From an uncultured virus (IMG/VR IMGVR_UViG_3300008113_000126) (Duplodnaviria > Heunggongvirae > Uroviricota > Caudoviricetes), in IMG/VR virus record IMGVR_UViG_3300008113_000126: a DNA stretch of 64,000 bases, one strand, 5' to 3'. The notes under the pieces are model-generated. The model saw nothing but the letters and a program-made list of their open reading frames with translations, was not told the origin of the DNA and did not search any database. A program made the position numbers and the translations under genes. This document shows positions 14,435 to 35,974 of this stretch, piece by piece; the first letter of the stretch is position 1, and every line of letters starts with the position of its first letter.

Positions 14435-14447
14435 TTAGAGATCGTTA

Positions 14448-15077
14448 ATGAAACTATCTTATCTACGAGAACATTTAAGTTTTGATCAGGCAGGGGTTGT
14501 ATTAGAGTCTGACGACAAGGAAGGCAAAAATCTTTATCTTAAAGGTATTGCTATTCAAGGCGGCATTCGTAATCAAAACCAGCGGGTTTATCCAGTTCGA
14601 GAAATCGAGAATGCTGTTAAGACTCTCAACGACCAAATTCAAAATGGTTACAGTGTATTAGGTGAGGTAGATCATCCTGATGATCTTAAAGTTAATTTGG
14701 ACCGAGTAAGCCATATGATCACAAACATGTGGATGGAAGGTCCTAACGGATATGGCAAAATGAAGATTTTGCCAACTCCAATGGGTAATTTAATTCGTAC
14801 TATGCTTGAAAGCGGCGTAAAACTTGGTGTAAGTTCTAGAGGAAGCGGAAACGTTGATGAGAGAACTGGCGAAGTAGCCGAATTTGAAATTATTACAGTA
14901 GACGTAGTTGCCCAGCCTTCAGCGCCAGGAGCTTATCCTACACCGGTTTATGAACATCTTTTAAATGCAAGAGGTGGTAGTAGAGCGTTTAGGGTGGCGC
15001 AAGAAGTACAACAAGACCCAAAAAAAGACAAGTATCTCCGCGAGGCGATGCTTAACATAATCAACGGTTTGAAATAA
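14448..15077 (+). CDS. Prohead protease gp21
   Basis: N.N.RVYP, LGEVDHP, RVSH, LGVSSRGSG, D.VAQPSAP.AY motifs. Confidence 0.93.
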   Translation: MKLSYLREHLSFDQAGVVLESDDKEGKNLYLKGIAIQGGIRNQNQRVYPVREIENAVKTLNDQIQNGYSVLGEVDHPDDLKVNLDRVSHMITNMWMEGPNGYGKMKILPTPMGNLIRTMLESGVKLGVSSRGSGNVDERTGEVAEFEIITVDVVAQPSAPGAYPTPVYEHLLNARGGSRAFRVAQEVQQDPKKDKYLREAMLNIINGLK

Positions 15078-15090
15078 CCGGAAGGAGAAC

Positions 15091-16182
15091 GTGATGTTGG
15101 ACGCATTCAAACAACTAGTTGAGTCAGGCGTGATGACCGTGGAAACACAATCCGTTATCGAGTCTGCCTTCGCTAAAAAAATTCAAGAGAATCGCGACCA
15201 AGTCACCGCTGAACTTCGTGAAGAATTTGCACACAAGTATGAACACGATAAAGGTGTCATGGTTGAAGCAATCGACAAGATGTTGAGCGAGAGATTGGCC
15301 GCAGAAATGGCTGAACTTGCAGAAGATAAGAAATCTTTAGTAGAAGCTAAAGTTGCTTATCAACATAAAATGAAATCTGATGCGAAAGTATTAGAATCGT
15401 TTGTGCTAGGTCAGCTAGGAAAAGAATTGGTAGAATTCCAAAATGATCGTCAGAAAGTTTCGGAAAACTTCCAGAAACTCGAGCAGTTCGTGGTTCACGC
15501 ACTTGCAAGAGAAATCAGTGAATTCGCAGCCGATAAGCGTGATTTAGCAGAGACCAAGGTTAAACTTGTTCGCGAAGCTAAAACACAATTTGAAGCTATT
15601 AAGAAGCAGTTCATTCAACGTAGCGCCGCAGTAGTTCAAGAAGCAGTCACTACCAAATTAACTTCTGAGATGAAACAACTCAAAGAAGATATTGATAGTG
15701 CCCGCGAGAACAGCTTTGGTCGCCGCCTGTTTGAAGCATTTGCCCAAGAATATTCTACATCTTACCTTAACGAAAAATCCGAAACAAGTAAATTGTTACA
15801 GATTATCCAAAAGAAAGATCAAGAATTAGCTGAAGCAAAGCAAGTCGTAGCAGAAAAAAGCACTATCGTAGAATCTAAAGACCGCGAAATTCGCATTACT
15901 AAAGATTTGATGGAGCGCAAAGCTGTAATGGCAGAAATGCTAGCACCTTTAAGTGCCGACAAAAAAGAAGTTATGCAATCGTTGTTAGAAAGTGTAAAAA
16001 CTTCCAGACTTCGTGATGCATATGACAAATACCTACCAGCAGTAATTGAAGGCGAGAAGAAGAAGACAACTCAAAAAGTTGCTTTAACAGAGAGCACCGA
16101 AATCACAGGCGATAAAGAGAGCAAGCCAGAGGTAGGCTTCGATAACATTTTAGATATCCGCAAGTTAGCGGGACTAAAATAA
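15091..16182 (+). CDS. Prohead core scaffold protein gp22-like
   Basis: Coiled-coil protein between protease and MCP; FGRRLFEAF motif; AAGGAG RBS. Confidence 0.8.
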   Translation: MMLDAFKQLVESGVMTVETQSVIESAFAKKIQENRDQVTAELREEFAHKYEHDKGVMVEAIDKMLSERLAAEMAELAEDKKSLVEAKVAYQHKMKSDAKVLESFVLGQLGKELVEFQNDRQKVSENFQKLEQFVVHALAREISEFAADKRDLAETKVKLVREAKTQFEAIKKQFIQRSAAVVQEAVTTKLTSEMKQLKEDIDSARENSFGRRLFEAFAQEYSTSYLNEKSETSKLLQIIQKKDQELAEAKQVVAEKSTIVESKDREIRITKDLMERKAVMAEMLAPLSADKKEVMQSLLESVKTSRLRDAYDKYLPAVIEGEKKKTTQKVALTESTEITGDKESKPEVGFDNILDIRKLAGLK

Positions 16183-16204
16183 TTAATATTCAAGGAGACA
16201 GAAA

Positions 16205-17386
16205 ATGTCACAACTATTAAATGAAAGATGGTCAGAGACCAAAGACGCTCTACTTGAAGGCCTATCCGGTACCCGCAAGTCGAGCATGAGTGTTTGTTTA
16301 GAAAACACACGTAGATATCTAGCAGAAAGTGCAACTACTGGTGCAACAAGCTCCGGTAACATTGCAACACTTAACCGTGTTATTCTTCCAGTTATCCGTC
16401 GTGTTATGCCAACAGTTATTGCCAACGAAATCATCGGCGTTCAGCCAATGACTGGCCCTGTTGGACAAATCCACACTCTACGTGTACGTTACGCAGATAC
16501 ATCATCTGGTGACAGCGTAGTTGCGGGTGATGAGGCATTAAGCCCATTCAAGATTGCTGCCGCTTATTCTGGTAACAACGTTGATGGAACACCAAAGGCT
16601 AACACCACTGCTGTTCTAGAAGGTCAACCAGGCAAGCGTATGAGCATTCAAATCTTGAAAGCTCCAGTTGAAGCGAAAAGCCGCAAGCTATCCGCTCGTT
16701 GGACTTTTGAGGCTGCACAAGATGCACAAGCCATGCAAGGTATTGACATCGAAGCAGAAATCATGGCTGCTCTAGCACAAGAAATCACTGCTGAAATTGA
16801 CCAAGAGATTCTACAATCTCTACGTACTCTAGCTTCAGTTGAGCAAACATATGACCAGTCACTAGTTTCTGGTACAGCTACGTTCGTAGGTGATGAGCAT
16901 GCCGCTCTAGCTATCCAAATCAACCGTGTTGCTAACTTAATTGCTCAGCGTACACGTCGTGGTGCGGCTAACTGGGCTGTTGTTTCTAACCAAGCTCTTA
17001 CAATTCTACAAAGTGCTACAACTTCTGCGTTCGCAAGAACAACAGAAGGTACATTCGAAGCTCCTACAAACACCAAGTTTGTTGGTACATTGAATGGCGC
17101 AATGAGAATTTATGTTGACGCATATAAGACAGACAGCGATGACAACAACCAAGTATTAGTTGGATACAAAGGTACTAGCGAAGCAGATGCTGCCGCGTTC
17201 TATTGCCCATACATTCCTCTAATGTCTTCTGGTGTTGTTCTTGACCCAGCAACATTCGAGCCAGTAGTTGGCTTCCTAACACGTTACGGTTATGTAGAGT
17301 TGAACAATACTGCTTCTTCTCTAGGTAATGCCGCTGACTACCTAGGTAAAGTTGCTATCACTAGCGCAACAGTAAGCTTCAAGTAA
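16205..17386 (+). CDS. Major capsid protein gp23
   Basis: IIGVQPMTGPVGQI, VEAKSRKLSARWTFEAAQD, EITAEIDQE, YCPYIPL, FEPVVGFLTRYG; strongly biased codon use. Confidence 0.97.
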   Translation: MSQLLNERWSETKDALLEGLSGTRKSSMSVCLENTRRYLAESATTGATSSGNIATLNRVILPVIRRVMPTVIANEIIGVQPMTGPVGQIHTLRVRYADTSSGDSVVAGDEALSPFKIAAAYSGNNVDGTPKANTTAVLEGQPGKRMSIQILKAPVEAKSRKLSARWTFEAAQDAQAMQGIDIEAEIMAALAQEITAEIDQEILQSLRTLASVEQTYDQSLVSGTATFVGDEHAALAIQINRVANLIAQRTRRGAANWAVVSNQALTILQSATTSAFARTTEGTFEAPTNTKFVGTLNGAMRIYVDAYKTDSDDNNQVLVGYKGTSEADAAAFYCPYIPLMSSGVVLDPATFEPVVGFLTRYGYVELNNTASSLGNAADYLGKVAITSATVSFK

Positions 17387-17403
17387 TTTGAAATTACTCA
17401 AAA

Positions 17404-17430
17404 CAAAAGGACTCTTCGGAGTCCTTTTTG
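17404..17430 (+). terminator. Rho-independent terminator after MCP
   Basis: AAAAGGACTC-TTCG-GAGTCCTTTTT. Confidence 0.9.
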
Positions 17431-17514
17431 TTTACACAATAAATAACAATGTTCAAATGAACTTATAGCGGTCGCCACCGCGTAGGCCCAGAACGCTAAT
17501 CAAGGAGAAATAAA

Positions 17515-18012
17515 ATGGCAAAAGGTATGAAAATCGCAAAAGGTAGTTCACCACAAATTGATGTGTCAATTACCCCAGAGCAAATAAATGTTCCAATTAC
17601 TACAACAACTAACGAAACAGTTTACTTCGGTGGTGTTGGTGGTAATCCAGATGTAGTTAATACGTTAACTATCAAAGTATGGTATAAAGATTCCGACGGT
17701 GTTGCATATTCCGACGGTTATATCGATTCACAAAAAGGTCGAAAACAATTTGTAATAAAGAGTCCTAGCACTTCTACAGTTACAAGGGCTACTCTTACAG
17801 CCGTAACTGCAACGACAGCACTTACCACCGGTCAAATGGCAATTAAGGCTATTAGTAATACTGGTGTTGCTTTTTGGGCCAGTAGAATTACTAACAAATA
17901 TGTTTGGAACGGCGATAACCGTTATCGTTATGCAACAGTAAGTAGTGGTACTATAACTGCGGTTGACACTGCAAATGCTACTCTAACTTATGCAGTAGTT
18001 CAAGGTGTTTAA
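17515..18012 (+). CDS. Probable virion structural (head decoration-like) protein
   Basis: 165 aa Thr-rich; own TAAATA promoter (17440), AAGGAG RBS and terminator. Confidence 0.6.
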   Translation: MAKGMKIAKGSSPQIDVSITPEQINVPITTTTNETVYFGGVGGNPDVVNTLTIKVWYKDSDGVAYSDGYIDSQKGRKQFVIKSPSTSTVTRATLTAVTATTALTTGQMAIKAISNTGVAFWASRITNKYVWNGDNRYRYATVSSGTITAVDTANATLTYAVVQGV

Positions 18013-18031
18013 TTAATTTAACCTAGATAAG

Positions 18032-18054
18032 AAACGCCCGCAAGGGCGTTTTTT
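18032..18054 (+). terminator. Rho-independent terminator
   Basis: AAACGCCC-GCAA-GGGCGTTTTTT. Confidence 0.9.
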
Positions 18055-18071
18055 ATTGAATAAATATTGAT

Positions 18072-18780
18072 ATGGCCAAACCTTTAAATCGCCGCCTGTT
18101 CGGCAATGACACAATTAATGTCCACAAGTGGACTGCATATCGAAGAAATACTACTGCCACTGACAATTTTATAGGTGGGGAAGGTGTATGGGATATTAAA
18201 GTTGTAAGTACTGGTTCTGGATATATGGACTGGTATCCAGCATGGCAAATACAAACAGGTAGGACTTTAACTGGAACACTAACAGTGTATTGGGAAGCAT
18301 CGACTCCAGAGTTACCTGGTGGAGTAGCAGCTTATGGACAGATGGGTATCAGTATGCGTAACGGCGGCGTTGATCCAGACTCAGTATATTGGTTTGACAA
18401 GGGATCAGGTTATATACAACCGCCTACAATAAATTTAGCTTGGGATTATGTAAATCAACCAGTTCAACAACGTGCAGTATTTGAAACACAATTAAGAAAT
18501 ATTACTCCAAACGCAATAGGAGTATATGCTATTCCGCCTGAACCATTAATATCTGGTCAACCTATAACCAATGTTTCGTATCCTGCTGATATAGTTAAAC
18601 AGATAAGTGATAAGAAATTTCACTTAACAATTACATAATGTAACACTTTATAGAAAACAATTGTCTGGCCTAGGTCCTTTTATCTACAACACAAATGACA
18701 GAGCCAAATGGACTTTTGTAGAAGCTAATGGAACAGACACTAGTCTAACAACTACTGTTGTTAAATTATTAAATTGGTAA
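18072..18780 (+). pseudogene. Structural-protein gene apparently broken by a frameshift near 18634 (ORF 18072-18638 plus a +1-frame continuation to 18780)
   Basis: ORF stops at 18638; the +1 frame 18634-18780 is open for 48 codons (HNVTLYRK...RAKWTF...KLLNW*) and ends 7 nt before the next gene. Confidence 0.5.
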
Positions 18781-18787
18781 AAAAATA

Positions 18788-19888
18788 ATGCGTATAGACA
18801 TATCTGGATATGAATTTAATGGTACAGGATGGTGCCTTCCTACGGTAGTTACACAGGTAGCTGAAGATCCAGCACACATACCATGGGATAACACAGGAGA
18901 TTTTTGGCTTATTAAATCTTACGATAAAGGACATGTTAAAACTATGTCGCCGGTAGCACATGTAGTAAATTCGTTTACCGGTCCAAGATTAAACAAAACA
19001 AATTATTTGTATTGCACTGGATTTAATTTTAATATTCCGAGATTGTTATACGGCATAGAAGTTAAGATAGTAATGAATACCGGTGGTCGCGTAATGGAAG
19101 ATACTATTCAATTAAGATGGAATAACAAGTGGATAGGTTTAAACAAAGCCAGTGATAATATGGATTCCATTAAACGTGTAAACAAACTTTCACAATGGAT
19201 TACTGACGAAACTCCATATTGGGGGATAACAATTCAAGATCTTAACACATCCACTGCAAATTTAAGTTGGCTTAAATCGTGTATTTCTGACCCATCTTTC
19301 GGAATAGGATTAAGATTTAAAAGTAATAATACAATTCCACATTCTACTACTCCAATGATTGAATATGTTGCTATTCGATTAATCGATGAGTTTTTTAAAG
19401 GAGACCTAGCTATTGGTTACATAGATGGGGAGGAGGTGTTATCGGGACAAGACAGTTCGGGCACTCAAGACACTGGTGCCGGTCCCAGAAACACCGCACC
19501 GCCAAAATGGGGTGAAGACGGTGATACTGGATTTGGTCCTAAAGAACCAATTCCCCCCGCAGATATCGGACAGTATCTTGGATCAACAGGAATTTTTACC
19601 ATTTTTGATAATACAAGTACCCGTGTTGTTTCTACCTCAACAAATACTGTTATAAATGACTCGTCTGCTACAGCAACTACATCTACATTCTGGCCTGGAG
19701 TCCAAATTATTACAATAACAAAATTGTTAGGAGTGGTCGATACTCCTGACCAACTACCTCTGGATGTTCGATTTAATCCCAATGCATCTTATTCTATGGG
19801 GTCTGCTTATGCTGTTAGATCTACACAAACATTTTGGGCGTGGGACGGATACCGGTTTAGTAATACTGGATCTGCAATACTACAATAA
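18788..19888 (+). CDS. Hypothetical structural protein
   Basis: 366-aa ORF in the late structural cluster. Confidence 0.6.
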   Translation: MRIDISGYEFNGTGWCLPTVVTQVAEDPAHIPWDNTGDFWLIKSYDKGHVKTMSPVAHVVNSFTGPRLNKTNYLYCTGFNFNIPRLLYGIEVKIVMNTGGRVMEDTIQLRWNNKWIGLNKASDNMDSIKRVNKLSQWITDETPYWGITIQDLNTSTANLSWLKSCISDPSFGIGLRFKSNNTIPHSTTPMIEYVAIRLIDEFFKGDLAIGYIDGEEVLSGQDSSGTQDTGAGPRNTAPPKWGEDGDTGFGPKEPIPPADIGQYLGSTGIFTIFDNTSTRVVSTSTNTVINDSSATATTSTFWPGVQIITITKLLGVVDTPDQLPLDVRFNPNASYSMGSAYAVRSTQTFWAWDGYRFSNTGSAILQ

Positions 19889-19913
19889 TCGATAAATATT
19901 AAAAAGGAAGAAT

Positions 19914-20936
19914 ATGGGAACTACTAGTGTTGTCCGCGTACCCGGCGATTATCAAATAGTTGCAAGGTCAGGTGGAGTTGTTATTGATGTGACAACTACA
20001 TCTACCTTGCGTGCCGCCAATACCGGAACTGTTACAATTTATGGCGATCTCAACGTCATTGGTTCAACCACCTATATTAATAGCACTAATACTAATATTC
20101 TTGATAATATCTTAATTCTTAATAGCGGAGAAACAAACGATTATGTAACACTAGGAACAGCTGGTATCGCAGTTTCTAGAGGATCAATTTCTACACTTAC
20201 CAATGCGGCAACATTGTTGTACGACGACACAGTGTATTGGAGCTATGATAACAATACATCTTTTAGAGGAATATGGGAAGCCGCAGTCGGTAGTGGAAAT
20301 TTAGAACGATCGCCAACCGCTGTTAGAATGGCCGCAATTCGAGTTGGTGCAAATTCTAATTCTTTTAATATATTTGGTCAAGACAATCCTTTAGCAGTTA
20401 TTAATGTAAAGGGAACAACAGATTACGAACAACATGTATTAGACGATGATGATATTCCAAATAAAAAATATGTCGATGATAGATTTTTTAACGGAAATGA
20501 ATTAGCAAGAAAATTAAAAGTAGGCGAAACTCAAATTGAATTAAGGTCAAACGTTGTTGTTCCTTCAGATCCCTACTATAATGTGTCTGATAAAGTTGTT
20601 GTATCTTTAGGAACTACTACCAATGTAGTTTTACAATTAGAAGGCCAAGAGGCTATTTTCAACGGACTTACACTTAACGACACTGAAATAAGAACTAATC
20701 AATACAGCGGAAGTGTTAATATTTCTGTAACTCCAAATTCTACAGGTACGTTTATAGTTAATTCTGTATTAAGTTTGACAAACAGCACTCCGGGAGATGC
20801 AGTTCAAGGAAAGACGCAAGTTTATTCTACGGCAACTATAGGTGGTGGCGGAACTGGATTATATTTTGTAAATACAGAACAAGCCGACGAATTAGTAAGC
20901 AGAAAACGTGCAATAATTTACGGAATAATTTTTTAA
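19914..20936 (+). CDS. Virion structural protein (fibre/appendage-associated)
   Basis: GDLNVIGSTTYINST..I.DNILILNSGE motif (shared with 33126 ORF), IPNKKYVD, C-terminal ELVSRKRAIIYGIIF; TAAATA at 19893. Confidence 0.65.
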   Translation: MGTTSVVRVPGDYQIVARSGGVVIDVTTTSTLRAANTGTVTIYGDLNVIGSTTYINSTNTNILDNILILNSGETNDYVTLGTAGIAVSRGSISTLTNAATLLYDDTVYWSYDNNTSFRGIWEAAVGSGNLERSPTAVRMAAIRVGANSNSFNIFGQDNPLAVINVKGTTDYEQHVLDDDDIPNKKYVDDRFFNGNELARKLKVGETQIELRSNVVVPSDPYYNVSDKVVVSLGTTTNVVLQLEGQEAIFNGLTLNDTEIRTNQYSGSVNISVTPNSTGTFIVNSVLSLTNSTPGDAVQGKTQVYSTATIGGGGTGLYFVNTEQADELVSRKRAIIYGIIF

Positions 20937-21827: not shown

Positions 21828-21835
21828 TATAAATA
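21828..21835 (+). promoter_or_regulatory. Late promoter TATAAATA for the giant structural gene
   Basis: Exact consensus, followed by a ~90-nt leader with hairpins and GAGGAG RBS. Confidence 0.7.
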
Positions 21836-21926
21836 AGTTCGATGCCTAATGATTGGCAGAAATAACTGTGGTAAACCCGCAATGTAAGGTGGTTCTAGGG
21901 TGAAATACCCTTGTTGAGGAGCACAA

Positions 21927-24900
21927 ATGGCTGTAGGTCGCATATCAGGTCCGTTATTGGCAAGGAACTTATTCCGTGATAATGTCCCATTAGCATTTTA
22001 TAATATCAATAGTACTGAAGAACCAGTTTTATATCTTGATGTTACAAATACCCGTGTAGGTATAAGAAAAGATACACCATTATTTCCTTTAGATGTTAAA
22101 GGAACAATCAACGGGGATGTTTTACGCATTGTTCAAACCAATAATGATAGTGGTACCGGTGTTGGTACTATTGGTAAGATCTTTATCTCAACAAACACTA
22201 TTTCTAGTGTAACAGGTCCAGTAAATATTGCCCCAGTAGGCGGCGATGATATTAATTTATTTGCAGATACAACAGTCTACGGTAGCTTACATGCAACTGG
22301 AAATATTTCGGCAGATGGAAACATTGAATTAGGTAACGTTCCTACTGATAAACTTCGTGTACTTGCCGAAGTTGATAGTGATATAATTCCTGCAATTGAT
22401 AAAAGATATAACCTTGGCGGACCAGATGCAAATTGGGCCAAAGCCTACGTTGATACTCTAGTAAGTAACGCATTGACCAGTACTTCTGGAAATATAGAAA
22501 TTAATCCAGCAGGCGGCCTATTAGAAATTAACGGTCAAATAAGAGTTAACAGTCCTAACAAACCATTAGGAACTGCACCAATTGTTACAAATATTTTATA
22601 TGTAACAATGGATGGTAGTGATACAAACGATGGCTCTGCTATGGATCCAACTCGTGCTTGTCGCACAGTAAGTGGAGCAACAAAGAGTCCGCTGTATGCA
22701 CCTGGCACTAGTATTAAGGTTGCTCCAGGCAGGTTCTACGAAAACAATCCAGTATTAATGTTACCTAACACTAGTATTATTGGAAGCGACTTACGTACTA
22801 CATTTATTGAACCTCTAAATAAAACACAAGATTTATTTCACGTACAGTCTGGTTGCTATATTGCCCAGCTACAAATGAGTAACGGACGTAGTGGTCTATT
22901 ACCTATTGAAAATTCTAGTGGTTATAATAGAGGGGCATATGCAACAGCATTCCCTCCATTAGTTGACGGAAAAAAGATTGATGTATTCCACTCACCATAT
23001 ATTCAGAACTGTACTAATCAATCAGGTCCGTGGTTAAAAGATGGTACAATGTTTGCTCCTAATCAAACAGTGCAGATTCCAAGCGGCGTAGGTATTGGTT
23101 CTTGGCCAGCTGGTGCAACATCTCTTACTATAAGCATGACTACTGGAACTATTTCAGTAGGTGATAGTATCAATGCAGGCCCACAAAATCTTGGATTTTT
23201 TGATGCTAGAACACTTATTTTAGCAAACAAATCTTTTATTCAAGATCAAGTAATTAATTATATTACGTATCAAATTGTAAACTCAACTGCAACATCTTAT
23301 TGGTATGATTTCAAATACAGTAGAGCAAAATGTCATAGAGACGTAGGAATTATTTTAGAAAATATATCATACGACACAACATTTGGCGGCAATGAAAAAT
23401 CTGTTGAGAGTGGATTAGCGTACTATCAAGGTGTTATCAGTCTTATTGCTGGACAAGAAAGACAAACTCTTGAAGCAATTAATTATATAAACAGTCTTAC
23501 ACAACGAGTTATAGTTAATTCTTCTGCAACAATTTATGGTCCAGCTACTATTCCTCAAGTTTATAATTACAACCTAAAAGGTGGTGCTATTGCAGGCCCT
23601 GCGTTTGCTAGAAATATTAATATAGTTACTAATATTATTCTTAACGGCCCCGCAGTTGCACCGGCAATTTATAAGAGTTCTGGCCCAGACCAACAAACTA
23701 TAAGTGCAGAAACGTTATTACAAGACAACAGGTCGTTTATTCAAAATGAAGTAACTGCATGGACAGACTATAATTATTCTAATATTAATTATTCTACAGC
23801 AAAATGTAAAAGAGATTTAGGAATTATTATTGACAGTATTGGAATTGATTTAACATATCCCGACAATACTTACAAGTCTCAAAGTACATTTGCCGGTTTG
23901 CAATATTGGAATCAATCTAGTTATACTGGAGAAATTGCTAACGAGCTGAGTACAACAACAAATGCTATCAAATATGTAAGTTTGTTGGCACAGGAAATTG
24001 TACAAAATGTTACAACAGGTGTCCGTTACCAAGGAGTGGCAACTCAAACAGCTCGAACAACACACCCTGGATCGTATGTAGAAGCTGATTTTATTAAATC
24101 AGAATTTACTACAATTCTTGACATTATTATCAATGGAACAACTGGAGTTACTGATAGAGTTATACCAAATAGTGCCACAACTAGTTCTAGGGTAAGCGTA
24201 TGGAATGCATATAATTTACTTGTTGCAAATAGATCTTACATTCAAACAGAAGCTATTGCATTCGTTGAACAAAATAAAACAACAGGATTTGCTTACGATA
24301 CAGCAAAATGCGAACGTGACGTTGGATTCATGATTGATTCAGTATGTTTTGATTTGTTACACGGCGGCAATAGAATGGCTATTCAAAGTGGTGTATACTA
24401 TTACGACTTTAACGGAAGCGACAGTGCAATTAAAAACGAAATTCCGCAAACGTTAGATGCTTACAGTACACTAACAAATATTGTAAGTAATATTATACAA
24501 AATATCCCTGTAGTAAGAACACAAACTATTGTTGCACAAGACACATCGTTACCTGCCGCATCTGCTACAGAAGCTACAGCATTGACTAGTTATATTAACA
24601 ATATCATTAATATTATTACTAACGGTCCAGCGGCAGCTCCTGCAAAACGTCCAGTACCGCTTACCGCTTCGACTAATCCTCTTACTTTTAGAGCCTGGAA
24701 TATCTTACAGGCAAACAGAGAATTTATTAAAGAAGAAGTTGTTTCTAGAATTAATCAAAAGTATTTTAGACAATATGCTTACAACGAAGAAAAATGTTTT
24801 AGAGATTCTGGGCTAATTGTTGACGCAATTGTACAAGATTTAATGTTTGACTCAACAAGTCAAAGTACATTTAGTGGTTTGCAATATTGGAATCAGAACA

Positions 24901-27900
24901 ATGTATACACTGGACAGATTGCTGGCCAAGTAAGCACAACCACAGCGGCTATTTCTTTTGCAAAAGAGATAGCAGGCAAAGTTGTAATGCTTAATACATC
25001 TGTTCCTAGATTCTCAACAGGTACACAGATTGTAAACATGCCAATGGCAACACAAAGTCAAGTTGCTGCCATCTATGAAAAATTTGACACTATTATTGAT
25101 ATAATTACAAACGGTATTGTTGGCGTAACTGATAAAATTATACCTAACAGATTAGAACCATCATTTAAAAATGATGATCTAGACGCATTTAATCTATTAC
25201 AGGCTAATAGAACATACATTCAGCAAGAAGTTGTTCGCTGGGTAGAATATTGGAAAGCTAATAACGATCCGGGGTATACTTACGATCAAGAACTTTGTTT
25301 TAGAGATATCGGATACATTGTAGACAGCGTGTCGTTTGACTTATTATACGGTGGCAATCGTCAATCTATTCAATCAGGTGTTTATTATTACGGCTATAGT
25401 GCAAGTAGTAGCGCAATATATGGTCAAACTACTGGTACTATTGCAGCCTTTAATCGTATAAGAAGTATTGTACCTAATATTATTAGGGGAGTACCAGTAG
25501 AGAGATATCAGAGCGATGTATTACAAGTATTTGACATGAATACAAATGATACTTCTACTATTGCTACAGCCGTTGGTAAAGTCGATATAATTACAAATAT
25601 TATAGAAAATGGACCAAGCGTTGCTGGTGCAAAAACACCTATTAATGTTACTCGATCAACATCTACTAATAAAATTAATGCAGGATTTATTTTGTCAGCT
25701 AATCGTGAATTTATTCAAGCTGAAACAGTTGCCTACGTAAATCAATTTTATGCTTTCAAATATAATAGAGAAAAATGTAGCAGAGATGCAGGACTAATCA
25801 TTGATGCAGTATCTCAAGATTTAATTCTAGGAGGTACTACTAAATCAATTGAAGCAGGTGTAACGTACTGGAAAGGTGCTAGAAGTTATATTGAAGGTCA
25901 AATTCCACAGACAGTTGCATCAGTAGAACATGCAAAAGAAGTTGCTCTAACTGTAGTAAGAAATCTTACCTATACACCAACTTCAGGCAACGGAACTAAA
26001 CAACGTATTAACACATATTATCAAGGTGGTGGGTTTGCCGCAGAGGGTATAATAAGAAGTTTTGATATTATTACCAAAATAATGCGAGACGGCCCCGAAG
26101 CCGCACCTCAATCATATGTAGGATCAGGGTTATTTGCTGATACAGGAATAAGCAATAACGATACAAAACTTGCTCCAAAAGTTACTGCTATTAGTGCTTT
26201 TACCTACGATGAAAATTTATGTAGACGCGACGCCAGCTATATAGTTGACGGAGTTTATTATGATGCGGTATTAGGGACAAATTATAATGCCGTACTCAAT
26301 GGTCTAGCGTATCAAAGAGGTACAGCCTCAATAGCGTTGTTAAGGGCAACAGAATTAAGTCAAACTATCACGGCATTTACCTATCTTAAAGATCAGGCAG
26401 CAACGTTAATGTCTACCAGCCCACTTGCGGCAGCAAGAGCTGATAATTCTTTTGCGGAATTATTAAGAATAGTAGATGGAAATACTGCTCCTGTAATTAT
26501 TTTTGCTAATCCGACCGGCGGAGTTGCAGGAAAAATAGCAGCCAAAAATCAATTAGTTGCAAATAAAGAATTCCTTAAGGCAGAAACAATTGCATGGATA
26601 GAAAATCAAATTGAATATAATATTGCACCTTTTAGTAGTAACTTTGTTTTTAATAAAACAAGGTATGCTAGAGATGTTGGATTTATCGTTGATGCATTAT
26701 GTTATGATATTTTATACGGTGGAAATAGCGGTAGCAGATTTAATGCGATGTTATTATTTACTGACACAGGTGCAAGTGTAATTGCAGGCGAAACATCTCA
26801 AGTAGTTGCGGCGTTTAATCATCTGTCTAATGTAGCACAGTCAGTTATACAAGGTATAAATGTAATTCCTACTTATGGAAATGAGTTAGGTCAACGTGCA
26901 GACGGAGAAGATGCAACAGCCACTGAAGCCACAACATTATCAGCGTTGGTAGATATTATTACAGGAGCTATTACTGACGGTAATTTATCTAATCTTCCTG
27001 CTAAAGAAGATCCAGGTACTAATTGGGTGCCAGCAGGAATTGTAAATGCAGCCGGTGCATTTAGTAGTGTAAAAGCTACGCTAATTAACGAAATGATTGC
27101 CTATATCAATTCGTTCCCAGCTGGACAATATCTAATTGAATTAGACAAACCAACAATTGGACCTGCTGTAAATGCTACATTATATTTCGGTCAAACATTA
27201 GTATTTCCAAAACTTGATGCAGAGTTTACGCCACAACAGGCAATAGATTGGGGTCAGCGTATGGTTGATCCAACAGGCTCTATGGGCGGATCATTAGTAG
27301 ACGGCGCAGTAGTAAGTGAGCGAAGTCCTATTAACTCGTTTGTTTACGATGCCTTCACTCAAGTTAATCAAGGTGGCCGAGGCATTCACATCATCAACAA
27401 CGGCTATGCACAGCTAGTTTCTGTGTTCACCGTATTCTGCTCGATTGCTGTTGAAGTTGGCAATGGAGGCATTGCATCTATTACTAACAGTAATAGTAAC
27501 TTTGGTGACTTCTGTTTAGTAGCAAAAGGTAAAGGAAAATTAGATTTCCAAGGAACAGTTTATAATCCTTCATACCCAACACTTGCACAATCAGGCGGTC
27601 TTACAGAAAACGGACAATATTATCCAAACGGATTTTGGCCACAAAATGCAGAAATGCTTGCATTTATTCCAGATACTACATATAGACCTCACATTGGTTT
27701 AGTGATGGAAGTTGTTCCACCTAAATATTATTTGCAAGATACTACTGGTGCTGGAAATTTTGTAGAAACTTTATATACAAATGATCAAGGGTTGCCAGGA
27801 TTTTTAACTGCTGCCGCTAACATGGCAACACTAACAACTGGATCAATCAAGATTACAAACATTGTAACAGACGGAGTTGCAATTGGCCAAACAGTATACA

Positions 27901-28985
27901 TTCGAGATCAATTTGGTAGTTTTGTTGATACTAATGGTGTTATGTATGCTACTACAGGAACTTTAGTTACTGATGTTAATTATCAAAGCATTACATTAAG
28001 TGTAGCCCTTACATCCGGTGGTGGGGAAGTTGATAATCCTAACTTTTTTACAATATTAACTTGCGGAAATGCATACTATAATGTATTAAGTAGTTCTATT
28101 ACTTCGAACCCAATTACTGTTGGTAACTCTATGTTACCTGATGTTCCTGGAGCACTACATAAACTAGCTGAAAAAGAAGCACTTGAGTTTATGACTCAAC
28201 TAGTAATTAATGTAGTTGCAAACAATACTATTATTGCAGGCAACACAGTAGGCGTAATACAGAACAAAGTTAATGACTCTGGCGCAGCCGCAAACTCTTT
28301 TATCAGTGACAGATTTAATGATATATTAACAATCTTTAATGACGGTGTAGGTTCAGCTCCTACGATACGAAAAACAGGACAAAGTCCTCCTCAAGCATCA
28401 CAAGCTATTGCACAACTACGTGCCAATAAAGAGTTTATTGTTGCAGAAGTTACCCACTATGCTGTAAGTAGAAATACTTATACTATGACTGTAAGCCAAA
28501 CTTACAAATGTAAGAGAGACACTGCGCTAATTATTGATAGACTAATCCTAGATCTTACAAATGGCGGAAATTATAACGCAGTAATGAGCGGATTAAGTTA
28601 TTGGAGTAGGGCAGGTACATATCATAAGATTAGTTTAGAAGATCAAGTACGTAATCCATTGTTATTCCCAGATGGTTCAACAATTAATTTCTATCAAAGA
28701 AGTTACATGAGTGCGTTGGGTTATACATTTGAATATGTTGGTGCTGGTACAAACTATGGTAGTTTACCTCAAGTTGGTAGAGCAGATCCTATCCAAAGTC
28801 GAGAAGTAGTACAAATAGATAACGGTAAAGTATTCTTTACATCAACTGATCAGAACGGCGATTTCCGTATTGGTCCGGGATTAGTTATTAGTCAGGCAAC
28901 CGGAGTGTTGTCAGGAAGAACATTTACGAAGTCGTTGTTTGCCCAAATGACTCCGTTTATATTAGCCGTTGAGGCAGGTGGATAA
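21927..28985 (+). CDS. Giant (2352 aa) virion structural protein: beta-helix-like framework with tandem helical C-x-R-D repeat domains
   Basis: GRISGPLL N-terminus; YVTMDGSDTNDG..I.V.PG.F.E..P, SPYIQNCT and DAFTQVNQGG pectin-lyase-like segments; nine Y...KC.RD.G.I.D....D...GGN repeats. Confidence 0.75.
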   Translation: MAVGRISGPLLARNLFRDNVPLAFYNINSTEEPVLYLDVTNTRVGIRKDTPLFPLDVKGTINGDVLRIVQTNNDSGTGVGTIGKIFISTNTISSVTGPVNIAPVGGDDINLFADTTVYGSLHATGNISADGNIELGNVPTDKLRVLAEVDSDIIPAIDKRYNLGGPDANWAKAYVDTLVSNALTSTSGNIEINPAGGLLEINGQIRVNSPNKPLGTAPIVTNILYVTMDGSDTNDGSAMDPTRACRTVSGATKSPLYAPGTSIKVAPGRFYENNPVLMLPNTSIIGSDLRTTFIEPLNKTQDLFHVQSGCYIAQLQMSNGRSGLLPIENSSGYNRGAYATAFPPLVDGKKIDVFHSPYIQNCTNQSGPWLKDGTMFAPNQTVQIPSGVGIGSWPAGATSLTISMTTGTISVGDSINAGPQNLGFFDARTLILANKSFIQDQVINYITYQIVNSTATSYWYDFKYSRAKCHRDVGIILENISYDTTFGGNEKSVESGLAYYQGVISLIAGQERQTLEAINYINSLTQRVIVNSSATIYGPATIPQVYNYNLKGGAIAGPAFARNINIVTNIILNGPAVAPAIYKSSGPDQQTISAETLLQDNRSFIQNEVTAWTDYNYSNINYSTAKCKRDLGIIIDSIGIDLTYPDNTYKSQSTFAGLQYWNQSSYTGEIANELSTTTNAIKYVSLLAQEIVQNVTTGVRYQGVATQTARTTHPGSYVEADFIKSEFTTILDIIINGTTGVTDRVIPNSATTSSRVSVWNAYNLLVANRSYIQTEAIAFVEQNKTTGFAYDTAKCERDVGFMIDSVCFDLLHGGNRMAIQSGVYYYDFNGSDSAIKNEIPQTLDAYSTLTNIVSNIIQNIPVVRTQTIVAQDTSLPAASATEATALTSYINNIINIITNGPAAAPAKRPVPLTASTNPLTFRAWNILQANREFIKEEVVSRINQKYFRQYAYNEEKCFRDSGLIVDAIVQDLMFDSTSQSTFSGLQYWNQNNVYTGQIAGQVSTTTAAISFAKEIAGKVVMLNTSVPRFSTGTQIVNMPMATQSQVAAIYEKFDTIIDIITNGIVGVTDKIIPNRLEPSFKNDDLDAFNLLQANRTYIQQEVVRWVEYWKANNDPGYTYDQELCFRDIGYIVDSVSFDLLYGGNRQSIQSGVYYYGYSASSSAIYGQTTGTIAAFNRIRSIVPNIIRGVPVERYQSDVLQVFDMNTNDTSTIATAVGKVDIITNIIENGPSVAGAKTPINVTRSTSTNKINAGFILSANREFIQAETVAYVNQFYAFKYNREKCSRDAGLIIDAVSQDLILGGTTKSIEAGVTYWKGARSYIEGQIPQTVASVEHAKEVALTVVRNLTYTPTSGNGTKQRINTYYQGGGFAAEGIIRSFDIITKIMRDGPEAAPQSYVGSGLFADTGISNNDTKLAPKVTAISAFTYDENLCRRDASYIVDGVYYDAVLGTNYNAVLNGLAYQRGTASIALLRATELSQTITAFTYLKDQAATLMSTSPLAAARADNSFAELLRIVDGNTAPVIIFANPTGGVAGKIAAKNQLVANKEFLKAETIAWIENQIEYNIAPFSSNFVFNKTRYARDVGFIVDALCYDILYGGNSGSRFNAMLLFTDTGASVIAGETSQVVAAFNHLSNVAQSVIQGINVIPTYGNELGQRADGEDATATEATTLSALVDIITGAITDGNLSNLPAKEDPGTNWVPAGIVNAAGAFSSVKATLINEMIAYINSFPAGQYLIELDKPTIGPAVNATLYFGQTLVFPKLDAEFTPQQAIDWGQRMVDPTGSMGGSLVDGAVVSERSPINSFVYDAFTQVNQGGRGIHIINNGYAQLVSVFTVFCSIAVEVGNGGIASITNSNSNFGDFCLVAKGKGKLDFQGTVYNPSYPTLAQSGGLTENGQYYPNGFWPQNAEMLAFIPDTTYRPHIGLVMEVVPPKYYLQDTTGAGNFVETLYTNDQGLPGFLTAAANMATLTTGSIKITNIVTDGVAIGQTVYIRDQFGSFVDTNGVMYATTGTLVTDVNYQSITLSVALTSGGGEVDNPNFFTILTCGNAYYNVLSSSITSNPITVGNSMLPDVPGALHKLAEKEALEFMTQLVINVVANNTIIAGNTVGVIQNKVNDSGAAANSFISDRFNDILTIFNDGVGSAPTIRKTGQSPPQASQAIAQLRANKEFIVAEVTHYAVSRNTYTMTVSQTYKCKRDTALIIDRLILDLTNGGNYNAVMSGLSYWSRAGTYHKISLEDQVRNPLLFPDGSTINFYQRSYMSALGYTFEYVGAGTNYGSLPQVGRADPIQSREVVQIDNGKVFFTSTDQNGDFRIGPGLVISQATGVLSGRTFTKSLFAQMTPFILAVEAGG

Positions 28986-28996: not shown

Positions 28997-29380
28997 ATGG
29001 CATTAATACCATTAAATACATTTAAGACAAAGACACAGGTACTTACAACAAGTACAACTGCAACAATTTATACTGCCCCAATCGGTACAACTGCTATTAT
29101 TCTTATGACACAAATTGCAAACGTTACTAACGCAACACAATATGTATCATTTGGGCACTACAGAAGATTACAAGTATTACCTGACGCACAAGGTAACGGA
29201 GGACAGCCGGGAAATACATTTACTCCCCTAGTATCTAATTTTGCTATTCCAAAAAATAATGCGTCTAGTGTTGTTACTGGAAAAGTAATTGTTGAAAGTC
29301 TTGATAGTGTACGTGCGTGGACTACTAATCCTGATGCCTGCAGAATAACTTTAAGTGTCTTGGAGACAGCAAATGCTTAA
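28997..29380 (+). CDS. Small structural protein
   Basis: 127 aa; IYTAP.G.TAIIL..QIANV pattern; AAGGA RBS. Confidence 0.65.
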   Translation: MALIPLNTFKTKTQVLTTSTTATIYTAPIGTTAIILMTQIANVTNATQYVSFGHYRRLQVLPDAQGNGGQPGNTFTPLVSNFAIPKNNASSVVTGKVIVESLDSVRAWTTNPDACRITLSVLETANA

Positions 29381-32300
29381 GACTCTCGACGACTCAGTTG
29401 AACGTGACGGGGGATCGGGTGATTTTATTAACCTGTCCGGCGCTCAACCGGCGTTGGGACCTTCTCCTTCAACTAGTACTGGTTTTACATTAATTACTGA
29501 CGAGCTTTCTCGTACAAGATATGCTAGTAGTTTAGGAAATTTAGAATTTTCTACAGGTACAGTTCTTGCTCAGCCTGGCATTAATATTACACTTAAAGCT
29601 GATGTTAACGGAGTCATTTTTGTAGACTCGACTGCAACAATCTTCTTACAAGGACTCACGGTTCCAGATACTCAGCCAATTAATCATGGTGGTCGTCCTA
29701 GTTATCGCATTCCTAATTTTTATAGAGGACCTAATCCACCTGGTCCTTCAATCGCTAGAGAAGGCGATGTTTGGTATGATTACAATTCTGATGTAATGTA
29801 TGAATACACAAACGACAACACCCAATTAGTCTGGATTGATGTAACTGGACCATTCTTTTCAACAACTGTTGCTCAATTTGGTTTTACTGGTAGTAGTTCT
29901 GGATTTACTGGTTCGCAAGGCGCAAAAGGTGACCCGGGTATTCCAGGGGGATACACCGGTAGCAAAGGATATACAGGTAGTTTTGGCTACACAGGTAGTA
30001 GAGGTTATACAGGTAGTCAAGGATACACAGGTAGTTTTGGATATACAGGTAGCAAAGGGGATCAGGGTTATTACGGAAGTCAGGGTACTTCTGGATTTGC
30101 AGGTAGTCAAGGCCTTGACGGTTTTACTGGATCATTTGGCTACACAGGTAGTATTGGATATACTGGCAGTACCGGAGCAGGGTTTGTTGGTAGTACAGGC
30201 TACGATGGTAGTAGAGGATATACAGGTAGTGAAGGTCCTCAAGGCTATACAGGGAGCAAAGGATTTATTGGTAGCTTTGGTTACACTGGTAGTGCTGGTT
30301 ATTCAGGAAGTTTTGGTTCAACTGGTTTTACAGGTAGTCGAGGCGTAGAAGGATTTGTAGGCAGTCAAGGCTATACTGGTAGTCAAGGATATGTCGGTAG
30401 TCAAGGAATTCAAGGCTATACTGGCAGTCAAGGTGAATTAGGCTACGGCGGCTCTGCAGGTGATAAAGGTTTCACTGGTAGTAAAGGTTTCACTGGTAGC
30501 CTAGGCGGACCTGGTTATACAGGATCTATAGGATTTAGAGGCAGCATCGGTTTTGCAGGTAGCCAAGGACCAAAAGGAGATACTGGTTTTACTGGATCTG
30601 ACGGTTTCCAAGGTAGTGCGGGTTTTGCAGGTAGTATCGGTTTTACTGGCAGTCGTGGATTTGGAGGTAGCCAGGGTTTTGCTGGTTCTCAAGGTAATGA
30701 TGGATTTACAGGTAGCCAAGGTAACGTAGGCTATACTGGTAGTATTGGCTATGTAGGTAGTAAAGGTGAAAAAGGTTTTACTGGATCTCTGGGCTATGTT
30801 GGTAGCTTCGGTTACACTGGTAGTCGAGGCTATGTTGGTAGCTTCGGTTATACTGGTAGTGCTAGTGATATTCCCGGTTATAGCGGGTCAATGGGATACA
30901 CCGGATCTAGTTCAGGATTTACTGGCAGTCGTGGATTGGTAGGATTCGACGGTAGTCAGGGAGATATAGGCTATACTGGTAGTAGTTCTGGATTTACAGG
31001 TAGTAAAGGATTTATTGGTTCTGTAGGTTATACAGGTAGTCTTGGATTTACTGGATCTATCGGTATTGGATTTGCAGGCAGTTACGGATTTGTAGGTAGT
31101 GTTGGCTTTACTGGTAGTGCTGGCGCTGGATTTACTGGTAGTGCTGGCGGCCAGGGAGAAACCGGTTATCTAGGTAGTAGGGGATATACAGGTTTCCAAG
31201 GAAGTAAAGGCGATCAAGGTTATAGAGGTTCAGCAGGTTATGTCGGTAGTCAAGGCCGTCCAGGAGTTCAAGGTCCGGTAGGAGAAGTTGGATTTCAAGG
31301 ATCAGAAGGTTATTATGGTAGTGCTGGATATGCCGGTAGTAGAGGCGACTCTGGGTATGTAGGATCTGAAGGTTACTTTGGTAGTGCTGGATTTACAGGT
31401 AGCTCTGGCGAAGGTTTCCAAGGGTCTGCTGGTTATTACGGTAGTGCTGGATATTGGGGTAGTGCTGGTTATGTAGGTAGCCGAGGAGTTGGCGGCTATT
31501 GGGGTAGCACAGGCTATCAAGGTAGCGAAGGTGTGGGTTACCAAGGATCAGAAGGCTATCAAGGTAGTAAAGGTAGAGATGGATTTACTGGATCAGAAGG
31601 CGTAGGATACCGGGGTTCTGCTGGTTACCAAGGTAGCGAAGGTTATTACGGCAGTGCTGGATTTAGAGGTAGTGCTGGCTTCCTAGGTAGTGCTGGATAT
31701 GCCGGTAGTATTGGCGATGTAGGTTATAAAGGATCTACAGGTTATAGAGGAACAGAAGGATTCCGCGGCAGTGTAGGATTCCAAGGTAGCTCAGGTATTG
31801 GATATCAAGGATCTGAAGGATTTAGGGGCAGTACTGGTTATAGAGGAACAGAAGGATTCCGAGGTAGTACTGGATATTGGGGCAGTGCAGGATTCCAAGG
31901 TAGTTCAGGTGTAGGTTATAGAGGATCTGAAGGTTTCAAAGGTAGTATTGGATATTGGGGCAGCGCTGGATATATCGGAAGTGCTGGTTATTACGGCAGT
32001 GCTGGATATCGAGGATCCGAAGGTTACGTTGGTAGTCGCGGCCTAACAGGATATACTGGCTCACAAGTTGTAGGATACCGAGGTAGTGAAGGTTTCCAAG
32101 GTAGTATCGGTCCTATTGGTAGTATTGGTCCTGTTGGAAGTCGTGGTGCAGTAGGTTATAGAGGATCTGAAGGTTTCCAAGGTAGTATTGGACAAGTTGG
32201 TTATACAGGCTCAGCCGGTTATCTAGGTAGTAGAGGCGGCACTGGTTACATTGGTAGTCAAGGTATTCCTGGTTATCAAGGTAGCAGGGGAGTAGTAGGA

Positions 32301-33110
32301 TACCAAGGAAGTATAGGTGCAGTAGGCTATCGTGGAAGTATAGGTGGTGTAGGATTTCAAGGTAGTGCTGGTGCTATAGGACCAACTGGATTTACAGGTA
32401 GTATCGGTCCTATTGGTAGTATCGGTCCTATTGGTAGTATAGGTCGTGTAGGCTACCAAGGTTCCGCTGGTAATCTTGCAGGTGTTGGTAACAATAATGA
32501 AATTCTATATAAGAATAGTATAGGACTTCTTGCCACAAGTAGCAGACAAACCTTTGACGGTACTCAGACTAAACTTCATGATCTTAAAGTACAAAATGAT
32601 GGATCTGTTTCAACTGGTAGAGTATATCTAGGCAATTCAAATACAAAATATCTCGAGTTTAACGGCGCTAGTTATCAAATGCCAAACGCTGACCTGTATT
32701 TGTCTTCATCATCTAACGATGTATATGCAAGATATTTCCGAGGTACTGCAATACAGGCATTCTACGCTGACGTTGCTGAAAAATATCTAACAGATAAAGA
32801 ATATGCAGTTGGTACGTTAGTTAAAGTTGGAGGAGTATGTGAAGTAACAATGGTTACTGATAGTGATTGCTATGTATTAGGAGTTATTTCTGACAAACCA
32901 GCTATGCTAATGAACAGCCATGCAGAAGGGCAAGCAGTTGCTTTATTAGGGCGTGTTCCTGTTAAGATCATAGGCACAGTAAGAAAAGGTGATCCTATTT
33001 GGCCAGCAACAAACGGTTGTGGCAGTACAGTAAGCAACGGTAAAGAACCATTTGCGTTTGCACTTGCTGACGGCGAAAATAGTTTAGTTGAATGTATTGT
33101 AAGAAGATAA
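29373..33110 (+). CDS. Collagen-like fibre protein with C-terminal autoproteolytic chaperone-like (peptidase G2-type) domain
   Basis: ~860 aa of Gly-X-Y; C-terminal YADVAEKY...GVISDKPA.LMN...VALLGRVPVK; start at ATG 29373 (GGAG RBS). Confidence 0.8.
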   Translation: MLKTLDDSVERDGGSGDFINLSGAQPALGPSPSTSTGFTLITDELSRTRYASSLGNLEFSTGTVLAQPGINITLKADVNGVIFVDSTATIFLQGLTVPDTQPINHGGRPSYRIPNFYRGPNPPGPSIAREGDVWYDYNSDVMYEYTNDNTQLVWIDVTGPFFSTTVAQFGFTGSSSGFTGSQGAKGDPGIPGGYTGSKGYTGSFGYTGSRGYTGSQGYTGSFGYTGSKGDQGYYGSQGTSGFAGSQGLDGFTGSFGYTGSIGYTGSTGAGFVGSTGYDGSRGYTGSEGPQGYTGSKGFIGSFGYTGSAGYSGSFGSTGFTGSRGVEGFVGSQGYTGSQGYVGSQGIQGYTGSQGELGYGGSAGDKGFTGSKGFTGSLGGPGYTGSIGFRGSIGFAGSQGPKGDTGFTGSDGFQGSAGFAGSIGFTGSRGFGGSQGFAGSQGNDGFTGSQGNVGYTGSIGYVGSKGEKGFTGSLGYVGSFGYTGSRGYVGSFGYTGSASDIPGYSGSMGYTGSSSGFTGSRGLVGFDGSQGDIGYTGSSSGFTGSKGFIGSVGYTGSLGFTGSIGIGFAGSYGFVGSVGFTGSAGAGFTGSAGGQGETGYLGSRGYTGFQGSKGDQGYRGSAGYVGSQGRPGVQGPVGEVGFQGSEGYYGSAGYAGSRGDSGYVGSEGYFGSAGFTGSSGEGFQGSAGYYGSAGYWGSAGYVGSRGVGGYWGSTGYQGSEGVGYQGSEGYQGSKGRDGFTGSEGVGYRGSAGYQGSEGYYGSAGFRGSAGFLGSAGYAGSIGDVGYKGSTGYRGTEGFRGSVGFQGSSGIGYQGSEGFRGSTGYRGTEGFRGSTGYWGSAGFQGSSGVGYRGSEGFKGSIGYWGSAGYIGSAGYYGSAGYRGSEGYVGSRGLTGYTGSQVVGYRGSEGFQGSIGPIGSIGPVGSRGAVGYRGSEGFQGSIGQVGYTGSAGYLGSRGGTGYIGSQGIPGYQGSRGVVGYQGSIGAVGYRGSIGGVGFQGSAGAIGPTGFTGSIGPIGSIGPIGSIGRVGYQGSAGNLAGVGNNNEILYKNSIGLLATSSRQTFDGTQTKLHDLKVQNDGSVSTGRVYLGNSNTKYLEFNGASYQMPNADLYLSSSSNDVYARYFRGTAIQAFYADVAEKYLTDKEYAVGTLVKVGGVCEVTMVTDSDCYVLGVISDKPAMLMNSHAEGQAVALLGRVPVKIIGTVRKGDPIWPATNGCGSTVSNGKEPFAFALADGENSLVECIVRR
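29880..32470 (+). repeat. 18-nt-period coding repeat, G-(F/Y)-x-G-S-x
   Basis: Long run of degenerate GGn-TWY-nnn-GGT-AGT-nnn units. Confidence 0.9.
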
Positions 33111-35968: not shown

Positions 35969-35974
35969 TAATTG

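Follow-up and report, generated by a model that had tools for sequence, protein, structure and literature searches.

The 64,000-nucleotide stretch of uncultured virus DNA analysed here, hereafter the window (IMGVR_UViG_3300008113_000126; Caudoviricetes), encodes on its plus strand a giant fibre-type protein of 2352 residues, P0001 (21927-28985), between the major capsid gene (PF07068, 16205-17386) and genes for collagen-like, neck and tail-sheath proteins. The gene is of late type, lies in the morphogenesis module and is homologous to genes of annotated fibre proteins. Its product contains nine repeats that, by sequence and predicted structure, are remote relatives of the phycobiliproteins, and we propose that P0001 is a candidate bilin-carrying fibre.

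The initial annotation had placed nine motifs in P0001, eight reading C-x-R-D and one Y-x-R-D (Y-A-R-D), and all nine lie at the codons it named: Cys at 23331, 23805, 24309, 24795, 25296, 25776, 26220 and 28509, and Tyr at 26664. As it also stated, the first eight motifs are 148-168 residues apart (158, 168, 162, 167, 160, 148 and 148), and the segments it quoted from repeat 1 are all found in the protein. Eight C-x-R-D motifs compare with a mean of 0.028 and a maximum of 2 in 2000 shuffles, in a protein whose repeats are pairwise only 17-43% identical. The further claim that four segments follow one another in phycocyanin order holds for repeats 1-6 and 8 but not for repeats 7 and 9: repeat 7 is not preceded by an A/B helix of its own, repeat 8 is followed by a degenerate A/B (residues 1705-1730), and in repeat 9 the G-H half (residues 2080-2142) precedes the A-B-E half. 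The parts of the protein are as follows (ORF, open reading frame).

21927..28985, plus strand: giant fibre-type protein P0001, matching PHROGs 5342, 4527 (tail fibre), 701 and 18802 (virion structural)
21927..22577 (residues 1-217), plus strand: variable N-terminal region, no family found, matched in 37 of 76 locus ORFs
22578..23186 (residues 218-420), plus strand: first half of a DUF1565-like scaffold, from homologue comparison
23193..23651 (residues 423-575), plus strand: domain 1, predicted complete globin in native order A-B-E-F'-G-H, Cys469 (model Z 13.5; Pfam PF00502 E 0.004 alone)
23691..26096 (residues 589-1390), plus strand: putative nested block of five domains (Cys627, 795, 957, 1124 and 1284), from covariation, a contrast in model confidence and two weak globin-like hits
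26118..26198 (residues 1398-1424), plus strand: short conserved non-repeat linker, from homologue comparison
26199..27116 (residues 1425-1730), plus strand: domains 7 and 8, order b7c7d7a8 b8c8d8a', Cys1432 and Tyr1580, from repeat alignment
27159..27551 (residues 1745-1875), plus strand: second half of the DUF1565-like scaffold, in 68 of 76 locus ORFs
27552..28151 (residues 1876-2075), plus strand: conserved non-repeat middle domain, no family found, in 60 of 76 locus ORFs
28164..28607 (residues 2080-2227), plus strand: domain 9, circularly permuted G-H-A-B-E-F', Cys2195, from repeat alignment
28629..28982 (residues 2235-2352), plus strand: strongly conserved C-terminal domain (PHROGs 3442, 17885), in 61 of 76 locus ORFs and 125 of 151 proteins

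What is the evidence that the repeats are related to phycobiliproteins? The homology had been proposed from shared motifs, and both sequence and fold support it. PF00502 is the sole Pfam family below E 0.05 for the whole of P0001 (E 3.4e-4), and two of the nine repeats match it singly (17.5 and 12.7 bits, below the cut-off). When a profile of seven window repeats was compared with 177,635 PDB sequences, phycocyanin 6jpr ranked first (E 0.001) and 16 of the 33 listed rows were phycobiliproteins; a broader profile aligned 66 gap-free columns with phycoerythrocyanin beta, from helix E into helix G, at an E value of only 0.38. The motif register is ungapped against both phycocyanin alpha and phycoerythrocyanin beta (C-x-R-D-[IV]-G and Y-x-L-x-x-G-G), and C-x-R-D stands at the start of helix E, the Cys-84 site, in eight of nine repeats. 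Three other searches returned nothing of use: ESM Atlas with repeat 1, NCBIfam with three repeats, and GTDB genomes with a single-repeat query that finds close relatives only.

The AlphaFold model covers repeats 1-6 with a predicted local distance difference test score (pLDDT) of 83.6 and was compared by VIA-align with 48,161 chains. In this model repeat 1 is a whole globin, and its seven best matches are all phycobiliproteins (Z 11.6-13.5), among them phycoerythrin (model residues 1-150 on 34-184; Z 13.5, root-mean-square deviation 2.9, 140 aligned), allophycocyanin (Z 13.3, deviation 1.9, 116 aligned) and the ApcE bilin domain (4xxi; Z 12.6). Eight of the ten top matches in a further structural search were likewise phycobiliproteins. 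The globin-type core A-B-E-F'-F-G-H is predicted in repeat 1 and in the E-H part of repeat 4 (Z 9.2). Such Z values alone are only moderate evidence for helical proteins, and we assign the repeats to remote relatives of the phycobiliproteins because predicted fold and motif register agree. The structural matches begin at subunit residue 34-36, and the N-terminal X/Y helices that build alpha-beta dimers are therefore absent; the linkers between repeats are also too short to hold them.

The domain family comprises 1435 clusters at 50% identity, of which the best 150 were analysed together with the 76 locus ORFs, and homologous domains were picked by a profile that omitted the motif columns. Of 1593 non-redundant domains chosen in this motif-blind manner, 1524 have the Cys and 1496 the full C-x-R-D, in proteins with a Cys content of 0.7%; in domain 9, C, R and D are invariant in 14 of 14 aligned rows. 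Among 1700 domains with aligned helices E and G, 69 are without the motif Cys, and 14 of these read S-x-R-D, with the Arg-Asp pair intact. Thirteen of the 14 have a new Cys in the first turn of helix G, 47 residues after the motif position, a site at which Cys is otherwise rare (found in 1 of 1631 canonical domains and in none of the 55 others that lack the motif Cys). L013 and L056 carry examples of such S-x-R-D domains. The Arg-Asp pair is kept in all 13 relocated domains, compared with 22 of 56 other Cys-less domains. Several relocated domains have canonical nearest neighbours, and on a quick tree from a short alignment (121 rows, 72 columns) relocation needs eight changes, four of them forced by well-supported branches, which points to at least four origins. 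No second conserved Cys was found, the next commonest occurring in 99 of 1631 canonical domains. One thiol per pocket, on either side and with Arg-Asp required, is as expected for a covalently bound ligand and does not fit a disulfide or a folding role. The proposal that the Cys binds a ligand thus gains support from both its conservation and its compensatory relocation.

A similar displacement occurs in ApcE (LCM), in which the canonical site is Ser and the Cys lies in the F-G region. ApcE binds phycocyanobilin (PCB) autocatalytically via the non-canonical Cys196 instead of Cys81 (PMC5578081, in part). Like P0001, ApcE has its bilin domain fused into a larger protein, and its use of Cys196 parallels the relocated phage domains; P0001 itself has the canonical Cys, and the phage rescue Cys differs from that of ApcE in sitting at the start of helix G and in having arisen several times. 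Repeat 8 of P0001 has Tyr1580 at the Cys position and no rescue Cys, and its pocket is probably non-covalent or empty. ApcF2, with Tyr in place of Cys, binds PCB non-covalently (PMC5578081, in part), and by analogy the same may apply to repeat 8. We also note that some cyanophage domains (L246, L250; S-PM2, P-HM2) read C-V-D-D or C-I-D-D, an Arg-to-Asp change that may tune or change the ligand.

How are the domains put together? They had been described as concatenated, but only repeat 1 is predicted to fold in sequence order, the others being permuted and nested. We denote helices A/B as module a, E/F' (which bears the Cys) as b, G as c and H as d. Repeat 9 then reads c-d-a-b and repeats 7-8 read b-c-d-a-b-c-d-a, an insert type (bcd-O-a) that recurs in homologues. 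Across 931 two-repeat alignment windows, module a covaries with c only across repeats (c(n)-a(n+1) z 13.5, 8.3 and 5.4; best within-repeat z 2.7), and a and d likewise couple only across repeats. The signals of module b were mixed and were resolved once the repeats were split by subtype (1,2,1,2,1,1,1,1,1 along P0001): when a type-2 repeat comes just before one of type 1, c-d of the former is coupled to a-b of the latter (z 12-16). On this arrangement, b of a leading repeat should find its partners in c-d of the next repeat and in a of the one after that. The prediction held in 196 windows of three repeats: of the top 30 couplings, 6 were of the type b(n)-a(n+2), more than of any other type, with z up to 10.6. 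Covariation in windows of type-1 repeats throughout gave no clear register.

From these couplings we infer a parse in which a2 and b6c6d6 form the outermost domain, b2[c2d2a3b3]c3d3a4 and b4[c4d4a5b5]c5d5a6 lie inside it, and domain 1 is native. Consistent with nesting, a3-b3 has a pLDDT of 56-66 when repeat 2 is left out of the model and mostly 81-93 when it is included. Two weak globin-like hits (model residues 165-966 and 529-855) have ends that fit the outer domain and the stretch from b4 to a6, which is suggestive of the same parse. Three other arrangements were rejected: a beads-on-a-string array, by the A/B-to-G coupling (z 2.7 at best within a repeat versus 13.5 to the next); a closed ring of six swapped domains, by the self-contained globin of repeat 1 and the variable copy number; and a single uniform b-c-d-a register, by the subtype and three-repeat covariation.

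The scaffold that carries these domains can be recognized in its uninterrupted form. Its halves are contiguous in 63 homologues without inserted domains, and the contiguous scaffold of one homologue (L042) matches DUF1565 clusters at 0.97-0.98, with DUF1565 (PF07602) on 21-78% of cluster members; the split halves in P0001 gave no Pfam match. We take the DUF1565-like scaffold to be, probably, a parallel beta-helix. Between the halves, where homologues hold 0 to 18 copies of the domain, the gap grows by about 160 residues per domain, from 6-284 residues in the 63 proteins that have no domain to about 2400 where fourteen are present, and the globin blocks are thus inserts in a conserved scaffold. 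As judged from covariation and predicted models, P0001 is a branched brush on a scaffold and not a string. The C-terminal domain is common to cyanomyophage fibre and virion proteins; a trimer prediction for residues 2074-2352 scored 0.00, which speaks neither for nor against a trimer.

Could the phage lineage make a bilin? A genome-wide search for ho1- and pcyA-type genes, suggested by the initial annotation and carried out in relatives, found heme oxygenase and PcyX genes in several of them and none in one, G003. The 57 distinct viral records searched, 8 of them at least 90% complete, were chosen by different queries, so that co-occurrence is not an unbiased measure. A bilin reductase was found in 3 of 28 records behind the first loci and a heme oxygenase in 3 of 29, of which only 3 are at least 90% complete. 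The closest near-complete relative, G030 (328 kb, 92% complete, capsid 92% identical, 19 domain hits), has adjacent genes for heme oxygenase and a PcyX-type reductase about 150 kb from the fibre gene. Both genes also occur in G044 (322 kb, complete), G002, G004 and G005, and in G031 a heme oxygenase has, by eye, a reductase-like neighbour. The G002 reductase, with heme oxygenase next door, is of PcyX type (E 2e-44 to 5OWG versus 1e-13 to cyanobacterial PcyA), a feature shared with the known phage hemO-pcyX / hemO-pcyA cassettes (PDB 5OWG; PMC11480375).

The cassettes show some further features. Two genes upstream resemble what we take to be hsp20 and clpS. The heme oxygenase gene follows the clpS-like gene in four jumbo relatives (L064, L223, L254, L255), and in three of these the hsp20-like gene and the reductase flank that pair. 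In L223 (2248-3626) the two ORFs after pcyX presumably encode relatives of the curli secretion proteins CsgF and CsgG. The heme oxygenase matches at G042:22018-22413 and G054:7310-7705, beside PcyX-type genes, each contain one in-frame TAA, which would mean a split gene or decay.

We propose that P0001 would be a late-made outer fibre-type appendage of a GAP32-like aquatic jumbo phage. On this proposal a conserved scaffold would bear a variable number of globin domains without X/Y helices, inserted both in scaffold loops and in one another's loops to give a branched brush. Each domain would keep the alpha-84 pocket, in which Asp and Arg would hold a linear tetrapyrrole and Cys would form the thioether. 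Heme in the infected cell would be turned into the pigment by the hemO-pcyX genes of the lineage, or the pigment would come from the host, and it would attach without a lyase, as in BBAG-1/3 and ApcE. Once bound, it would stabilise the fold, absorb light or quench oxidants on the exposed particle. CXRD globins bind bilin lyase-free and are photoinert or weakly fluorescent, as described in part of PMC10151467, and covalent bilin stabilises the apoprotein (PMC2327270, in part). Taking all readings together, attachment of bilin to P0001 domains is likely, and the virus particle probably carries bile pigment; that P0001 is a self-chromophorylating fibre in which the pigment is a passive cofactor is the account toward which we lean.

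Several observations weigh against this account. The PF00502 score of 21.0 bits falls short of the gathering cut-off of 22.2, neither model had a Foldseek match in the PDB at E<=0.001 (phycoerythrins came up with E 0.1-0.2 and probability 1.00), and heme-type sensor globins come next in structural rank, at Z 11.2-11.4. The position of P0001 in the virion, as an outer appendage, is one that we infer from gene position and database labels. As the initial annotation had said, no heme oxygenase, reductase or lyase family is encoded in the window (51 ORFs, Pfam scan). G003 (93% complete, 17 domains) has no heme oxygenase, reductase or neighbouring cassette gene; the clpS-like gene is likewise missing, and the whole cassette block may be missing from this assembly. 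G048, G056, G058 and the pelagiphage Mosig have heme oxygenase and PcyX and lack the domain; the cassette must therefore have other uses, and we reject the fibre as the explanation of every hemO-pcyX cassette. Among mostly incomplete records, CpeT was found in 0 of 29 and in 0 of 3 further jumbo records, and CpcS in 0 of 13.

Might the fibre sense light instead? In such a fibre, photoisomerisation of the bilin or a changed packing of the nested pairs would make adsorption, or deployment of the fibre, depend on daylight. Of 50,697 phage records, 172 match a query made of two repeats; 171 of these are named for Synechococcus, Prochlorococcus or Cyanophage and one is 'Marine', and the matching proteins are labelled tail fibre, structural or hypothetical; cultured GAP32-like relatives gave no match. 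S-PM2 has nine domains in two giant proteins and P-HM2 has four, most keeping C-x-R-D, and none were found in Mosig or, in a loose search, in P-SSM2. These counts parallel light-dependent adsorption as reported in part of PMC6628666: P-HM2 does not adsorb in the dark, dark adsorption of P-SSM2 is reduced but present, adsorption of S-PM2 depends on light independently of host photosynthesis, and tail fibres that respond to light are put forward as one possible cause. In the predicted nested pairs, moreover, the swap hinge lies at the F-G loop, beside the pocket. However, the parallel consists of three phages, one of them blank by a loosely set search, and cyanomyophages carry the domain widely (172 records). 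The BBAG holoproteins tested were photoinactive (PMC10151467, in part), and light-dependent adsorption is not known for phages of heterotrophs in the portion of PMC6628666 consulted; the present lineage has a PcyX-type reductase and no psbA (0 of 10 jumbo-relative genomes), so that its host is not shown to be a cyanobacterium. We consider light sensing by P0001 unlikely. A broader form, in which aquatic myophages build pigmented virions by loading dozens of sites on branched fibres with the products of their own hemO-pcyX/pcyA/pebS genes (and, in cyanophages, CpeT), as the photoreceptor for light-dependent adsorption, is in our judgement rather improbable too.

In S-PM2 (L242), cpeT (6848-7375) lies 1.4 kb upstream of the gene for a 3779-residue domain-bearing fibre (8824-20163). 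This adjacency is not general, as cpeT is more than 30 kb from the fibre genes in P-HM2. The S-PM2 record also lists 16 tRNA genes inside the 8824-20163 coding sequence, probably an annotation offset.

A still less probable alternative is that pocket and thiol serve another ligand or reaction, namely heme, another host tetrapyrrole, a metal, a disulfide or covalent trapping of a group on the host surface. Relocation shows that a thiol near Arg-Asp is needed and leaves the identity of the ligand aside, the heme sensor globins named above are close structural neighbours, and G003 has domains without bilin genes. Against heme, neither the repeat consensus nor the E-F' module aligned from 1457 domains showed a conserved His column, such as the proximal His of heme globins would give, and the C-x-R-D register is that of the phycobiliprotein bilin site; a disulfide is unlikely to be partnered, given the rarity of a second Cys. 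The best and sole PDB sequence match of whole P0001 is a thioester domain (E 0.038, residues 1401-1470), which counts towards this alternative, but the match is weak and spans one repeat junction. Least probable is an apo-globin scaffold repurposed as spacers or receptor-binding modules, its triad kept for folding only: the variable copy number, the loss of Cys in 4% of domains including repeat 8, and a second Asp and a Tyr as conserved as the triad all suit it, but a structural role does not explain why Cys-to-Ser is matched by a new Cys 47 residues on, nor why Cys is retained in 96% of domains that are only 20-45% identical.

The self-chromophorylating fibre that we favour can be set beside several known systems. 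Repeat 1 shares the core A-B-E-F'-G-H with phycobiliproteins (CpcA/B, ApcA/B, CpeA/B, PecB), whereas P0001 domains are fused, permuted and nested, 11-19% identical to them and without a lyase in close relatives; the context is a phage fibre and not a phycobilisome with lyase-dependent maturation. P0001 does not belong to the light-harvesting phycobiliproteins; most likely, though, it works in the manner of their pigment pocket. BBAG-1 and BBAG-3 are CXRD globins of non-photosynthetic bacteria, linked to heme oxygenase and pre-PcyA and lyase-free (PMC10151467, in part). By the definition given there P0001 is a CXRD globin. Compared by description only, BBAGs are single-domain cellular proteins encoded beside their enzymes, whereas P0001 is a multi-domain virion-type protein far from the cassette, with no heme oxygenase or pre-PcyA gene in its window. 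The giant proteins of cyanomyophages (PHROGs 701, 4527, 5342, 3442; T4-GC 734, 830) have the same repeat, scaffold and C-terminal domain, but their carriers are Kyanoviridae of 170-245 kb and not GAP32-like jumbo phages. T4-GC 734 and 830 of S-PM2 are labelled hypothetical in PMC3037559 (in part), the purpose of the cassette in phages of non-phototrophs is called speculative, and no phage-encoded acceptor is proposed, in the part of PMC11480375 consulted. Outside subscription journals and bioRxiv supplements, we found no published description of such domains in phage proteins; what is new here is that the Cys is seen to relocate, that the nesting is spelled out as a parse and that the domain counts are set against adsorption data.

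If P0001 does carry covalent bilin, the phycobiliprotein fold would have been put to a new use in a virion protein, and a branch would be added to the question of phycobiliprotein origin. The domains offer a testable acceptor for phage-made bilins and phage CpeT, whose roles are called unresolved in parts of PMC11480375 and PMC3037559. For the light-dependent adsorption of cyanophages they supply a concrete candidate, one that the cultured phages S-PM2 and P-HM2 make testable; were the photoreceptor reading true, the virion would be the first virus particle to sense light, and bilin 'auxiliary' genes would have a purpose for the phage itself. A natural multi-loop circular permutation of a globin with nesting would, in addition, be relevant to protein design and to fluorescent biliproteins that need no lyase.

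Finally, we turn to the setting of the gene. Two features precede it:

21828..21835, plus strand: T4-type late promoter word TATAAATA, 92 nucleotides before the P0001 start codon, in the preceding gap
21917-21922, plus strand: GAGGAG ribosome site of P0001, from sequence

We take TATAAATA to be the T4 late promoter motif; its three matches in the window each lie just upstream of an ORF, and the shuffle mean is higher (8.9). The window capsid is 68-70% identical to those of the jumbo phages GAP32, CBB, BF, Vibrio 2.275.O and Phosso, and the window phage belongs with the GAP32-like jumbo phages of aquatic habitats; the closest record spans 40 kb of this same region. In many relatives the family is represented by two giant paralogues lying side by side (L006, L009, L013, L014, L029, L036, L045), and no second ORF of the P0001 family was seen in the window. 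P0001 and a 127-residue gene (phrog_1276) are followed directly by a gene for a 1251-residue collagen-like protein of G-Y/F-x-G-S repeats (29355-33110, plus strand; PF01391 E 2e-103), probably another appendage. Nucleotide-sugar genes stand amid the structural genes at 35972-37343 and 47774-50747 (RmlC epimerase, NAD epimerase, DegT aminotransferase, a cytidylyltransferase-cupin fusion and GDP-mannose dehydratase) and may glycosylate the virion. The large terminase (57647-60298, plus strand) has 883 residues, with its Pfam domains starting near residue 430 after an N-terminal 430 residues that match no family.

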